In this document: one piece after another, positions 21,818 to 62,493 of the stretch
Numbering within the stretch: position 1 is the stretch's first letter
How the letters are laid out: each line of letters starts with the position of its first letter
DNA from: Acidobacteriota bacterium
GTDB lineage: Bacteria > Acidobacteriota > UBA6911
Reading direction: 5' to 3'
NCBI GenBank assembly: GCA_031271905.1
Contig: JAISUT010000020.1
Span: 2,432 to 66,431 of the forward strand
DNA length: 64,000 nt
The notes under the pieces: generated by a model
Database searches by the model: none
The model's input: the letters and a program-made list of their open reading frames with translations, nothing else
Told to the model about the DNA's origin: nothing
Program-made: the position numbers and the translations under genes

Positions 21818-21880
21818 GGGAACCTCTAAAAACCTCGCGGACAAGGCGCAACGTAGCGTCCGGGGTTTCTAGAGGTTCCC
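21818..21880. repeat. Nested-palindrome element, copy A (short form, 63 bp, orientation I)
   Basis: GGGAACCTCTAAAAACCTCGCGGACAAGGCGCAACGTAGCGTCCGGGGTTTCTAGAGGTTCCC. It begins immediately after the response-regulator stop codon and is flanked by ATAA on both sides (21814-21817 and 21881-21884). Confidence 0.9.
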
Positions 21881-21926
21881 ATAAGGCCGTCATAGGCCTG
21901 CATGGGCGAAGGGTGGGCATCCACGA

Positions 21927-23423
21927 ATGAAGATCACGACGCGCATCAGCCTGGGTTACGGCATGCTTCTGGCGATACTGCTAGGGCTGGCGTCATACCA
22001 GGCGCTCGCCATCCGCCGGATGCAGTCGATCAACCGCATGGTCGCCGACATCGACTTCCAAAACAGCCTCGGATGCCTGGAGGCGATGCGCGACTTGGAC
22101 TTGGTCGAGGAATACGCGCGCAAGTCCTTCGCCCTCGGCGACCCCGACTACCTGAACCAACTGGGCGAATACCGGCGCGACTTCACCGAGGATCTGCGCG
22201 ACCTGAAAAAACGCGCCCACGCGGGGGGCGAGCAGTCGGAGGTCGCCCGCCTCACCCGCAGTTGGGACGCCTTCAACCAGCATCTCGACTCGTTGCAACC
22301 GCAGTTCCTGGCGGGGGGCGGCGCGTTGCCGGAGGTGTTGCGTCAGGATTTCGAGAGCCTGGGGGCGCACATCCGGTCGGTCTACCAGGAGAACCTGCGG
22401 GCGATGTCCGAGAGCGTGGAGAGCGCGCGACGCACGGGGGAGCGGGCGTCGGCGGTGCTGGCACTAAGCACGCTGGCCGCCATCGCCCTCGGAACGCTGG
22501 TCTCCCTCCTCATCTACAGGTCGATCTCGCAGCCGCTCGCGCACCTGACCGAGGGGACGCGCGCCATCGCCGAGGGGAATTTCTCCTACCGCCTGGACAC
22601 GACGCGACGCGACGAGTTCTCGCAGCTAGCCAGGGACTTCAACGCCATGACCTGGCGCCTGGACGAGTTGGATCGGATGAAGAAAGACTTCGTGGCGCAC
22701 GTCTCGCACGAGCTGAAGTCGCCGCTCGCCTCGATGCGCGAGACGATCGCGCTCCTGCTCGAGGGGATTCCCGGCCCGTTGAACGAGAAGCAGCGGCGGT
22801 TGCTGGAATTGAACCGGCAGAGCGGGGCGCGCCTGACGGCGATGATCGGCAACCTGCTCGACCTGTCCCGCGTCGAGGCGGGCGTCATGGAATACGAGTT
22901 GCAGTCACACGACCTTGTCGCGTTGGCGCGCGGCGTCGTGGAGGAGGTCGGGGTGCAGGCGCAGGAGTGCGGGGTGCTGTTGCAGGCGGATTTACCCGAC
23001 GCCCCTCTTTTCGCGGAATGCGACGGCGACCGAATCGTGCAAGTCCTGCACAACGTCATCGGCAACGCCCTGAAATTCACGCCCGCAGGCTCCGAGGTCC
23101 GCATCCGGCTCGAAGCGGCGGACGAGCCCCCGTCGGGCGCCCCCGCCCCGTTTCGCGAGGCGCTGGCAGGGGGCGGGCGCGAGGGCGGGTTCGTCGCGGT
23201 GGATGTGAGCGACGGCGGGCCGGGCGTCCCGGACGCCGACAAGGAGAGGGTGTTCGAGAAATTCTACCAGTCGCAACAGGGGAAGAAGGCGAAGGGGCAG
23301 GGGGCGGGGTTGGGCCTCGCCATCTGCCGCTCCATCATGGAGGCGCATCGCGGCGCGATCTGGGTGGAGGACGCCCCCGGCGGCGGCAGCCGGTTCATCG
23401 TCTTGCTGAAGGCCGCGAAATGA
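21927..23423 (+). CDS. Sensor histidine kinase (TM, HAMP, HisKA, HATPase_c)
   Basis: The N-terminal TM segment is followed by a second TM and a HAMP domain (ISQPLAHLTEGTRAIAEGNF...). The H-box is HVSHELKSPL. The N/G boxes are NVIGNALKFTP, DGGPGV and GAGLGLAICRSIMEAH. Confidence 0.9.
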   Translation: MKITTRISLGYGMLLAILLGLASYQALAIRRMQSINRMVADIDFQNSLGCLEAMRDLDLVEEYARKSFALGDPDYLNQLGEYRRDFTEDLRDLKKRAHAGGEQSEVARLTRSWDAFNQHLDSLQPQFLAGGGALPEVLRQDFESLGAHIRSVYQENLRAMSESVESARRTGERASAVLALSTLAAIALGTLVSLLIYRSISQPLAHLTEGTRAIAEGNFSYRLDTTRRDEFSQLARDFNAMTWRLDELDRMKKDFVAHVSHELKSPLASMRETIALLLEGIPGPLNEKQRRLLELNRQSGARLTAMIGNLLDLSRVEAGVMEYELQSHDLVALARGVVEEVGVQAQECGVLLQADLPDAPLFAECDGDRIVQVLHNVIGNALKFTPAGSEVRIRLEAADEPPSGAPAPFREALAGGGREGGFVAVDVSDGGPGVPDADKERVFEKFYQSQQGKKAKGQGAGLGLAICRSIMEAHRGAIWVEDAPGGGSRFIVLLKAAK

Positions 23424-23426
23424 GGC

Positions 23427-59850: not shown

Positions 59851-59871
59851 TTTAAAGATAGGCTTTTATTT

Positions 59872-62421
59872 ATGACCGAATCGCAGGAGAACATCCCGGC
59901 AAGCCAGGAAAACATCCCGGTGAGCATCATCGAGGAGATGCGCAAGTCCTACCTGGACTACGCCATGAGCGTCATCATCGGGCGCGCGCTGCCCGACGCG
60001 CGCGACGGGCTCAAGCCGGTGCACCGGCGCGTGCTGTACGCGATGCACGAGCTGGGGAACACCTACAACAAGGCGTACAAGAAATCGGCGCGCATCGTCG
60101 GCGACGTCATCGGTAAATACCATCCGCACGGCGACAGCGCGGTCTACGACACCATCGTGCGCCTGGTGCAGGACTTCTCGGTGCGCTACCCGCTCATCGA
60201 CGGCCAGGGGAACTTCGGCTCGGTCGATGGCGACGCCCCCGCCGCCATGCGCTACACCGAAGTGCGCATGGCGAAGCTCTCGGACGAGCTGCTGGCGGAC
60301 ATCGAAAAGGACACCGTCGATTTCGGCCCCAACTACGACGACTCCCTGACCGAGCCTTTGGTGCTGCCCGCGCGCTTCCCCAACCTCCTGGTCAACGGCT
60401 CGGCGGGCATCGCGGTCGGCATGGCGACCAACATCCCGCCGCACAACCTGACGGAGATCGTCAACGCGACCATCCGCCTGATACGCAACCCGGGCGCGAC
60501 GGTCGCCGAGCTGATGCAGGACGTCCCCGGCCCCGACTTCCCGACGAGGGGCTTCATCTGCGGGCGCGGCGGCATCCGCTCCGCCTACGAGACCGGGCGC
60601 GGCATCGTCACCATGCGGGCGCGGGCGACCGTCGAGTCGATGCCCAGGAAGAAAGACCGCGAGATGATCGTGGTCACCGAAATCCCCTACCAAGTCAACA
60701 AGGCCAAGCTGATCGAGCAGATAGCCGCCTTGGTGCGCGAAAAGAAGATCGAAGGCATCTCCAACCTGCGCGACGAGTCCGACCGGGACGGGATGCGCAT
60801 CGTCATCGAGCTGAAGCAGGACGCGCAGGGCCAGGTGGTGCTCAACAACCTCTACAAGCTGACGCCGATGCAGTCGAGCTTCGGCATCATCCTGCTGGCC
60901 ATCGTGCGCAACCAGCCCAAGGTGCTGAGCCTGCGCGAGGCGCTGCTGTGCTTCGTCGAGCACCGCAAGGAGGTGGTGCGCCGCCGGACGGTGTTCGAGC
61001 TCAACAAGGCCGAGGCCCGCGCCCACATCTTGGAAGGGCTCAAGCGAGCCTTGGACATCCTGGACGAGATCATCGCCCTGATCCGCGCCTCGCACGAGCC
61101 CGGCGTCGCCAAAGAGGGGCTGATAGCGCAGTTCCAGTTCAGCGCCTTGCAGGCGCAAGCGATCTTGGACATGCGCCTGCAACGGCTGACTGGCCTGGAG
61201 CGCGAGAAGATCATCGCCGAGCTGGAGGAGATCCTGAAGCTGATCGCCCGCCTGAAAGAGATATTGGCGAGCGAGACGGTGCTGGAAGGGGTGGTCGTCA
61301 AAGAGCTGGAGGAAGTCAGGGAGGACTACGGCGACGCCCGGCGCACCGAGATCGTGGACGAGGAGGGGGGCGACGGGATCGACGAGGAGTCCCTGGTCCC
61401 GCTGGAAGACGTGGTGATCACGGTGACCCATTCCGGCTACATCAAGCGTACGGCGGCGTCCCTCTACCGCGAGCAGGGGCGCGGCGGCAAGGGGCGCATC
61501 GGCATGACGGCGCGCGACGAGGACTTCGTCGACCACATCTTCGTCGCCTCCACGCACAGCTACCTGCTGATATTCACCAACCGGGGGCGGGTCTACTGGC
61601 TGAAGGTCTATAAAATCCCCGATGTCAGCACCGCAGGCAGGGGCAAGGCCATCGTCAACCTGGTCAACCTCGGCAAGGACGAGAAGGTCGCGGACATCCT
61701 CGCCATTAAAAACGGCTTCGACGAGGGCGGCTACGTTTTCATGGCGACGCGCAACGGCACGGTCAAAAAGACCAGGCTCGCGGACTACTCCAACCCGCGC
61801 AACGCGGGGATCATCGGCATCACCGTGGCGGAGGACGACGAGCTTATCGGCTGCCAGCTCACCGACGGCGACTACGACGTGCTCTTGGCGACCCGGATGG
61901 GGCAGGCCATCCGCTTCTCCGAGCAGGAGGTCCGGGGGATGGGGCGCGTGGCGCAGGGGGTCATCGGCATCCGGCTCTCCGGGGACGACAAGGTGGTCGC
62001 CATGTCCGTCTTCAAGGGGGACGGGCAGTTCCTGACGATTTCCGAGAAAGGGTTCGGCAAGCGCACCGGCGTGGAGGAATATCCGGGCCATCATCGGGGC
62101 GGCGCAGGGGTGATCAACTTCAAGATCGTCCCCAAGAGCGGCGACGTGGTCAACACCTGCCATGTCCATGACGGTGAGGCCGTCATGATAATCACCGGCG
62201 GCGGCAAGCTGATAAAGCTCAAGGTGGACGAGATCAGCGTCCTCTCGCGCGCCACCACGGGGGTCAAGTGCATCGACATCGACGAAGGCGACCAGGTCGC
62301 CAGCGTCACCGTGGTGCCCGACGACGAGTCGGACGGCGAACCTTCCAACAGTGCGCCCGCCGCACCGCCCGCCGCCGACGTGGCGAATGACGTACAGGAC
62401 GACGGCGGCGCCGCCGAATAG
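59872..62421 (+). CDS. gyrA: DNA gyrase subunit A
   Basis: [45 protein letters not shown] (QRDR region), AAMRYTE (active-site Tyr), C-terminal beta-pinwheel repeats and an acidic tail. Confidence 0.97.
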
Positions 62422-62432
62422 TAAGAAGAAAG

Positions 62433-62493
62433 TGGACTTCAAAAAAGCTCGCAGACAAGGTGCAACGCAGCATCCGGGTTTTTAGAGGTTTCC
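62433..62493. repeat. Nested-palindrome element, copy H (short form, about 61 bp, orientation I, degenerate left end)
   Basis: TGGACTTCAAAAAAGCTCGCAGACAAGGTGCAACGCAGCATCCGGGTTTTTAGAGGTTTCC. It is 12 nt after the gyrA stop. The left boundary is uncertain. Confidence 0.7.

Follow-up and report, generated by a model that had tools for sequence, protein, structure and literature searches.

The subject of this analysis is a 64,000-nt stretch of DNA, here called the window, from contig JAISUT010000020.1 (positions 2,432 to 66,431) of the Acidobacteriota bacterium assembly GCA_031271905.1, together with a short palindromic repeat that occurs in it eight times and that we describe as a family of miniature inverted-repeat transposable elements (MITEs). 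The window has a G+C content of 64%, with G+C at third codon positions (GC3) near 0.9, and its genes, which were called by codon-position G+C and checked against Pfam, account for 88.6% of its length, leaving an intergenic fraction of 11.4%. The best named homologues of the CoxM and GyrA proteins encoded here all come from Acidobacteriota metagenome-assembled genomes (MAGs), at no more than 84% identity (81% over the full length).

The repeat copies and their neighbours

A profile hidden Markov model built from the eight copies recovers these copies in the window and nothing else at a significant level (nhmmer, E between 1.8e-39 and 5e-9). Apart from weaker hits to the palindromes themselves on the opposite strand, there is only a non-significant 34-nt match inside a coding sequence (CDS; E 0.023). 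With as many as 3 mismatches permitted, the 17-nt terminus GGGAACCTCTAAAAACC is present 13 times, while 0.05 occurrences are expected from dinucleotide-preserving shuffles. These results recover all of the homologous segments listed in the original prediction, i.e., an earlier note made from this DNA alone, with the sole correction that the last copy starts at 62432 and not at 62433; the same profile search bears out its statement that the first 21 kb are free of copies. Each copy is assigned to the strand that has the arm ...AAAAACCTCGCAGACAAGGCG ahead of the other arm, and by this rule both orientations are represented, as had been noted. The copies are listed below with the 4-nt flanks in which a target-site duplication would be expected; the arm called IRL-like resembles the left inverted repeat (IRL) of the insertion sequences (ISs) treated later.

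R1: 21818–21880, + strand; short (63 bp), nhmmer E 3.7e-11, IRL-like arm first on the + strand; left terminus perfect over 17 nt, right terminus with 1 mismatch; exact duplication ATAA (21814–21817 and 21881–21884), which takes in the TAA stop of a sigma-54 response-regulator gene (20294–21817); lies between this gene and that of its histidine kinase (21927–23423), 46 nt upstream of the latter.
R2: 26071–26192, + strand; long (122 bp), E 8e-39; hairpin of -49.6 kcal/mol, z -4.6; exact duplication TTAT (26067–26070 and 26193–26196); neighbours are a dksA-like gene (25585–25926, +) and a cobalamin adenosyltransferase gene (+).
R3: 37952–38016, - strand; short variant (65 bp), E 2.5e-9, both termini GGGAGCC; flanks TTTT/ATAT, without a clean duplication; 11 nt upstream of the start of a MoxR-like AAA gene (36891–37940, -) and 126 nt downstream of a Fic gene (38143–38625, -).
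R4: 44744–44862, - strand; long (119 bp), E 1.9e-37; inside a coxM-coxS-coxL operon, adjoining the TAA stop of coxM (44863–45750, -) and 42 nt upstream of coxS (44207–44701, -); flanks CTAA/TAGG, imperfect.
R5: 45858–45964, - strand; long (107 bp), its IRL-like arm shortened by a deletion of 14 nt, E 9e-32; flanks CTTT/TTTT, with one mismatch in 4 positions; located where coxM (-) and a thioesterase gene (46384–46809, +) diverge.
R6: 46811–46931, + strand; long (121 bp), E 8e-39; hairpin of -63.4 kcal/mol, z -6.9; begins 1 nt past the TAA stop of the same thioesterase gene; flanks TAAA/TGAA, agreeing at 3 of 4 positions.
R7: 53435–53556, - strand; long (122 bp), best nhmmer match, E 1.8e-39; hairpin of -68.2 kcal/mol; exact duplication TCTT (53431–53434 and 53557–53560); 8 nt upstream of the start codon of a DUF808 gene (52542–53426, -), a start supported by a Pfam alignment that begins at residue 4.
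R8: 62432–62493, + strand; short (62 bp), with a degenerate left terminus, E 5e-9, envelope 62432–62494; duplication GAAA exact (62428–62431 and 62494–62497) given the start at 62432; 10 nt past the gyrA stop.

Since all eight copies lie within 41 kb, they could in principle be the product of an assembly artefact or of a local duplication. We consider this extremely unlikely, as the copies are 78–92% identical, occur in both orientations and have unrelated flanks, and related elements are present in other public contigs. Moreover, a contig of the independent Logan assembly of SRR14710912 (L001; loci in public collections carry L numbers here) is identical to window positions 44834–45910, which include parts of two copies, so that this region is no artefact of the window's own assembly. 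Both ends of this contig fall inside R4 and R5, as is expected of a multi-copy repeat in a de Bruijn assembly.

Structure and size classes

The copies fall into two size classes, five long (107–122 bp; R2 and R4 to R7) and three short (61–65 bp; R1, R3 and R8), with the long ones 78–92% identical to each other. The terminal inverted repeats span 15–17 bp and enclose, in the five long copies, the second inverted repeat GGTCGAAAA/TTTTCGACC, which confirms the nested arrangement described beforehand. From one end to the other, the order is tip, A5, CGCAGRCAAGGCG, variable centre, GCGCAACGCAGCRTCCGG, T5, tip, and each tested copy forms one long hairpin on either strand, bordered by A5 and U5, with energies from -36 to -68 kcal/mol and z scores from -4.6 to -7.1 relative to shuffles; the whole-unit folding had also been foreseen. 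Alignment shows that the central ~58 bp of the long form are missing from the short form, whose junction falls at a 7-bp direct repeat, CAAGGCG, present in both arms, and that the copy at 45858–45964 lacks 14 nt of the left arm. We infer that the short copies arose by deletion between the CAAGGCG repeats, though the difference may instead reflect the gain of a central insert by the long ones.

A general repeat search of the window returned no other dispersed family. The sole other repeat is a pair of paralogous genes for sigma-54-dependent response regulators (12352–13755 and 20294–21817), which are 71% identical over 171 nt.

Placement, target-site duplications and empty sites

All eight copies are intergenic, an outcome with a probability of 3e-8 given the 11.4% intergenic fraction, and still of 2e-4 if the available targets are limited to 4-mers made of A and T only, 35% of which are intergenic. 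The claim that no copy overlaps a credible CDS therefore stands: each lies between Pfam-supported genes, and none covers a CDS with coding-type GC3.

Exact 4-bp duplications flank half of the copies (ATAA, TTAT, TCTT and GAAA), and two more copies agree at 3 of 4 positions. As a control, left flanks were paired with the right flanks of other copies, and only 1 of 56 such pairs was exact (binomial p about 7e-6). The 6-nt flanks are 69% A+T, versus 36% for the window.

Two neighbourhoods can be compared with relatives that lack the element. The coxM-coxS spacer measures 24 nt, with no element, in five relative contigs whose CoxM is 76–78% identical, versus 161 nt here, of which 119 are R4. Likewise, in a relative with a GyrA that is 80% identical (L107), gyrA is followed by the same Cytidylate_kin2 gene with no element between them, and the spacer reads GTAAGAAG...GAAAGG, with the target present once. 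No copy was found in ~113 kb of the relatives' DNA, and the expansion is therefore specific to this lineage.

The duplications also bear on a different class of intergenic repeats, namely the repetitive extragenic palindromes (REPs) and bacterial interspersed mosaic elements (BIMEs) moved by REP-associated tyrosine transposases (RAYTs) of the IS200/IS605-like kind. Such an origin would account for intergenic palindromes that reach a high local density at gene ends. We nevertheless judge it very improbable: single-strand Y1 transposition makes no target-site duplication, while the present copies carry 4-bp duplications. Their termini are, in addition, identical to those of DDE IS5 elements (see below). 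They measure 61–122 bp and start with GGGAAC, with no terminal GTAG or CGTC tag, while PMC3733652 defines REP/BIME units as palindromes of 20–40 bp with a GTAG or CGTC tag at one end.

Some further observations concern the setting of individual copies. The element's ...AGAGGTTCCC end now stands before the start codons of the DUF808 gene (R7, with the spacer at 53427–53434) and of the MoxR-like gene (R3, with the spacer at 37941–37951); with only 8 and 11 nt left between element and start codon, the original ribosome-binding region has been displaced. At 26182–26211 (+), upstream of the cobalamin adenosyltransferase gene, there is a promoter-like match (9 of 12 positions) whose -35 motif TTGAGG lies inside the right terminus of R2 and whose -10 motif lies in the flank. 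Next to R8, gyrB and gyrA are adjacent (57310–62421) without dnaA-dnaN-recF upstream, while a relative with a 6.9-Mb contig has the order dnaA-dnaN-recF-gyrB-gyrA (L106, 2884–12439); this lineage has thus not kept the synteny of the origin region. Finally, the first 2000 nt of the window have a G+C content of 0.53, markedly below that of the rest (0.60–0.68).

Termini shared with full-length IS5-family elements

Full-length IS5-family ISs found elsewhere end in the very same 16-bp terminal inverted repeat as the MITE, GGGAACCTCTAAAAAC. The original prediction had proposed looking for such elements, and they turned up in IMG/VR, in hosts other than the organism studied here. Scanning this collection for the 16-mer gave 20 loci, and in four of them both termini are present in inverted orientation, 1.15–1.3 kb apart, with a transposase gene between them:

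L011: 6626–7921, full-length IS of 1296 bp with an open reading frame (ORF) of 396 aa.
L013: 6365–7620, full-length IS of 1256 bp with an ORF of 345 aa.
L016: 6271–7421, full-length IS of 1151 bp with a frameshifted ORF.
L022/L026: both ends of the same IS, located on one contig.

Two further loci, L012 and L015, show the terminus followed by the N-terminus of a transposase. The proteins of ISs bearing this terminus match NCBIfam NF033581 (IS5 family, IS5_4) with E values of 3e-81 and 2e-80, far above the cutoff, and carry the Pfam domains DUF772 (PF05598) and DDE_Tnp_1 (PF01609). The transposases of L011 and L013 are only 38–40% identical and yet have the same terminus, which is therefore an old conserved feature of this IS5 clade; this age and conservation also explain why it occurs in very different hosts. 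Full-length ISs of the clade carry 4-bp duplications as well, i.e., CTCT (L011), GTGA (L041) and TTAA (L022/L026), and a published IS table lists direct repeats of 4 for other members of the IS5 group of the IS5 family (PMC3056050).

Close variants of the terminus are found on plasmids in PLSDB: GGGCACCTCGAAAAAC in an element of pWW0 (NC_003350.1, 36836–38111), GGGCGCCTCGAAAAAC in ISAzo41 of Aromatoleum, and GGGAACCTCTCAAAAC in a Diaphorobacter IS5. The MITE terminus differs from those of IS1246 and ISAzo41 at 2–3 of 16 positions. The pWW0 element measures 1276 bp and has a 15/16 inverted repeat, and IS1246 is tabulated as a pWW0 element of the IS5 group of the IS5 family, with a length of 1275 bp and an inverted repeat of 15/16 (PMC3056050); the pWW0 element matches this entry.

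The resemblance extends to one particular end of the ISs. The left arm of the MITE is the same over its first 20 nt (GGGAACCTCTAAAAACCTCG) as the transposase-proximal end of the L013 IS, and the motif AAAAACCTCG is also found at the transposase-proximal end of IS1246 and ISAzo41; the MITE therefore keeps the polarity from IRL to the right inverted repeat (IRR). At L015 (771–1650) lies an internally deleted IS5 that retains ~108 aa of the transposase N-terminus and ~132 aa of the C-terminus, and its IRL region is like the left arm of the MITE beyond the inverted repeat, GGGAACCTCTAAAAACCCCGCAG[CGTCCTGA]ACAAGCC.

One might then ask whether each copy is simply a full-length IS5 insertion that decayed on its own, without ever having spread as a miniature. 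The IS5-group termini would fit, as would the likeness of the left arm to the transposase-proximal ends of the L015 and L013 ISs past the inverted repeat. Yet interior and junctions are common to the five long copies, and a single deletion junction is common to two of the short ones, a convergence not expected of independent deletions, and no copy holds a transposase fragment. This origin is thus very unlikely, and the copies are better seen as having multiplied in their miniature form.

The window itself has no transposase that could move them, as had been stated: tblastn with two IS5 transposases gives nothing (E > 0.9). The reading of the repeats as MITEs is upheld, given that they are small and non-coding, have inverted termini and 4-bp duplications, are strictly intergenic, and end in termini identical to those of autonomous IS5-family elements elsewhere. 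The label "MITE/ERIC-like" holds for its first half only, as the likeness to the enterobacterial repetitive intergenic consensus (ERIC) is no more than an analogy: the sequences are unrelated, and the termini indicate IS5. Similarly, the repeat had been presented as an unrecognised family; the element is indeed absent from Rfam, from a full-text search for its terminus and from PLSDB, but its termini match the catalogued IS5-group terminus, and it is therefore a new family of a known class and not something unrecognised. Our analysis accordingly supports the view that the eight repeats form a new MITE family of a well-known kind, and not a new kind of element.

Searches of public collections and related elements

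At gathering thresholds, the only match of the window to Rfam 15 is a tRNA gene (8019–8092, -), and at permissive thresholds the copies and related loci gave only noise. A full-text literature search for the terminal 14-mers found no paper; blastn of one copy against the PLSDB plasmids returned only chance-level matches of 27–32 nt; and a family-specific 23-mer had 0 matches in the JGI metagenomes. A 21-mer from the right end has eight loci in GTDB genomes, none from a close relative and all belonging to other elements with a shared terminus. Pattern scans of the public collections gave no further copies of the exact window family.

The closest relative found, an element 123 bp long, is on a contig assigned by binning to Tannerella sp. 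(L006, 4006–4128); it has the termini and the architecture of the window family, and its inner stem is altered on both sides (GCGCTAAAAA/TTTTTAGCG). Scans of metagenomes and IMG/VR for the subterminal blocks recovered, in addition, a second MITE-like family (L030–L032, L068, L074/L105, L110/L111, L118 and L120, the last with two copies), which is multi-copy, with at least four copies on one 50-kb contig. Its copies include the following:

L030: 1656–1781.
L031: 236–300.
L032: 311–435.
L068: 535–679.
L074: 7492–7616.
L110: 9445–9588.
L118: 222–346.
L120: 3458–3582 and 10913–11067.

The second family shares with the window family the block order and near-identical subterminal CGCAGRCAAGGCG and GCGCAACGCAGCRTCCGG, and it is also dimorphic at the same junction, with long forms of ~125–155 bp and short forms of ~64 bp. 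The two differ in their central ~55 bp and in their tips, which are GACGRCTTCGTAAAAA...TTTTTACGAAGYCGTC in the second family, with the outer 10–11 bp reading GACGRCTTCGT instead of the GGGAACCTCT of the window family. Some of its copies carry an optional 20-nt mini-hairpin insert. No IS with the tips of the second family was recovered, as there is no IS5-like transposase among 64 IMG/VR loci, and the family has no match in Rfam. A hammerhead-like core (CUGAGGA) in the second family was considered and rejected: the GAA after stem II is missing, and the Rfam hammerhead models give no match.

This pattern of conserved interiors and divergent tips runs contrary to the neutral decay of a MITE, for which the reverse is predicted. 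Possible reasons for the shared interiors are common descent with replacement of the tips for another transposase, conserved subterminal binding sites, or a function at the RNA level. A bolder reading joins these elements into a single lineage of hairpin modules that crosses phyla and has the two families as branches. Its interior would be selected for an action of the RNA at stop codons or ribosome-binding regions, its outer 10 bp would be swapped so as to ride other IS5-like transposases, and the sense orientation of all eight window copies would then be functional; the RNA could, for instance, form 3' ends, confer stability or couple translation in an orientation-dependent way. We regard this reading as unlikely.

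The terminus GGGAACCTCTAAAAAC is also found in elements of other design. A 159-bp MITE family in IMG/VR combines it with a different interior and is flanked by a 4-bp duplication, ATAA. On contigs of Treponema MAGs, the same terminus makes up a 41-nt back-to-back inverted-repeat pair, i.e., a minimal hairpin, and also the last hairpin of a ~160-nt composite element of three hairpins. The loci are:

159-bp MITE family: L017 9843–10001; L018 51–209; L019 6638–6796; L020 5004–5162; L021 378–536; L025; L010.
Treponema loci with the terminus: L002 about 5641–5800; L003 about 4715–4880; L005 about 3780–3941; L009 6552–6595.

Orientation and hairpin function

In all eight copies, the IRL-like arm lies upstream relative to the transcription of the flanking genes (two-sided p about 0.008). 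Seven of them are between co-directional pairs of Pfam-verified genes, while R5, in the divergent region, is in sense orientation to the nearer gene. The orientation switches four times along the window, together with the local gene direction, and thus tracks local transcription and not a constant direction of replication. Among related elements, three could be scored, and the rule was not reproduced, with L030 in sense and both L006 and L031 in antisense orientation. One simple explanation for the uniformity is an asymmetric target preference: on the top strand of the element, the left-flank 4-mer is A-rich in seven of the eight copies, and the intergenic DNA of the window is likewise A-rich on its sense strand.

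The uniform polarity is also the first of several traits that invite a functional explanation, in which the copies are RNA or DNA hairpin modules (bidirectional terminators, stabilisers of mRNA 3' ends, or small RNAs) whose function drives their spread and retention, the IS5-type tips being a mere vehicle. A hairpin flanked by A5 and U5 resembles an intrinsic terminator, with U5 following the stem on both strands; the second family joins near-identical subterminal blocks to other tips; and the inner stem is kept by compensatory changes in L006. These last changes, though, are expected of any palindromic DNA, Rfam has no match even at permissive thresholds, and a scan for a terminator consensus found local hairpins in several copies with no enrichment over shuffles. 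The positions of the copies are, moreover, heterogeneous (after stops, 8–11 nt before starts, in an operon, in a divergent promoter region), and R4 sits between coxM and coxS in a molybdo-hydroxylase operon of the coxM-coxS-coxL type whose downstream genes are intact, which argues against strong termination. As the orientation rule also fails in two of the three scorable relatives, we find it improbable that function is what spreads and retains the copies.

Interpretation

We therefore favour, as very probable, the reading in which the eight copies constitute one MITE family whose members are non-autonomous derivatives of an IS5-family IS (IS5 group, IS1246-like). A DDE transposase, presumably encoded elsewhere in the genome, would bind the 16–20-bp terminal inverted repeats GGGAACCTCTAAAAAC(CYCG) and cut A/T-rich, often xTAA-like targets with a 4-bp stagger to insert the element, generating the 4-bp duplications that are observed. 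In a genome with 64% G+C, which has few such sequences, these targets would cluster at TAA stops and in the A-rich spacer before start codons, which is where the copies are seen, and selection would purge insertions into coding sequences, so that copies would pile up at gene boundaries. Short copies would result from loss of the central ~58 bp at CAAGGCG, probably by deletion between the repeats, and an element, once in place, would be transcribed along with the adjacent genes and form a long RNA hairpin between A5 and U5.

Several points weigh against this interpretation. Simple mobilisation alone does not predict the uniform orientation of all eight copies, nor does it predict subterminal blocks in common with a second family that has different tips. 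No autonomous IS5-type element is seen in the 64 kb of this organism, the matching ISs being from other hosts, and half of the copies have no perfect duplication. The relatives with empty sites share only ~76–81% amino-acid identity in the flanking proteins, and their intergenic DNA is only partly alignable. Lastly, the copies diverge by 8–22%, and no two of them are nearly identical; there is no sign of recent activity, and the burst is therefore not a recent one.

As for what the family means, it is a clear example of MITEs in an uncultured Acidobacteriota-like lineage, with an unusually high density of one copy per 8 kb in the window, and it illustrates how the A/T-rich target preference of a transposase would place elements right at the stop and start codons of a genome rich in G+C. 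For the copies in operons and 5' leaders, hairpins with predicted energies of -50 to -68 kcal/mol could alter the expression of the genes around them. In practice, short-read assemblies break at these repeats, and the family could also be used to mark strains. If the uniform orientation or the conservation of the interior were true genome-wide, they would point to selection on MITE interiors.

Relation to known systems

In overall form, the window family is like the hairpin MITEs known as Correia elements (Neisseria), ERIC (enterobacteria) and RUP (pneumococcus), which are ~100–150 bp long, fold into a hairpin over their whole length, lie between genes and are co-transcribed with them, and which exist side by side as full-length and internally deleted versions. 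The target duplicated by Correia and RUP is TA, whereas the window family duplicates 4 bp and has a clear IS5-group terminus. To our knowledge, none of the three has sequence similarity to the window family, and we know of no transposase partner identified for ERIC.

Compared with the ISs that bear its terminus or a close variant of it, i.e., those of L011, L013, L016 and L022/L026 as well as IS1246 and ISAzo41, the window family consists of non-coding elements of 61–122 bp instead of 1.15–1.3-kb elements with a DUF772 and DDE_Tnp_1 transposase, and its nearly palindromic interior is at best weakly similar to the subterminal regions of IS5-group ISs. Both have ends that start with GG (GGG) and a 4-bp target-site duplication.

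MITEs that share termini with IS5-family ISs have been documented before, namely BrickBuilt and MITE239/293/464/700 of Porphyromonas gingivalis and the Neisseria ATR with ISNme1 (PMC4596501). The window family is like these in being non-coding and multi-copy, with IS5-type termini, short, variable duplications and a proposed mobilisation in trans (PMC4596501). These earlier families carry the terminus GAGACCTTTGCA and belong to another host phylum (PMC4596501), and, relative to them, the elements described here are shorter, form a single hairpin from end to end, and have no internal tandem repeats.

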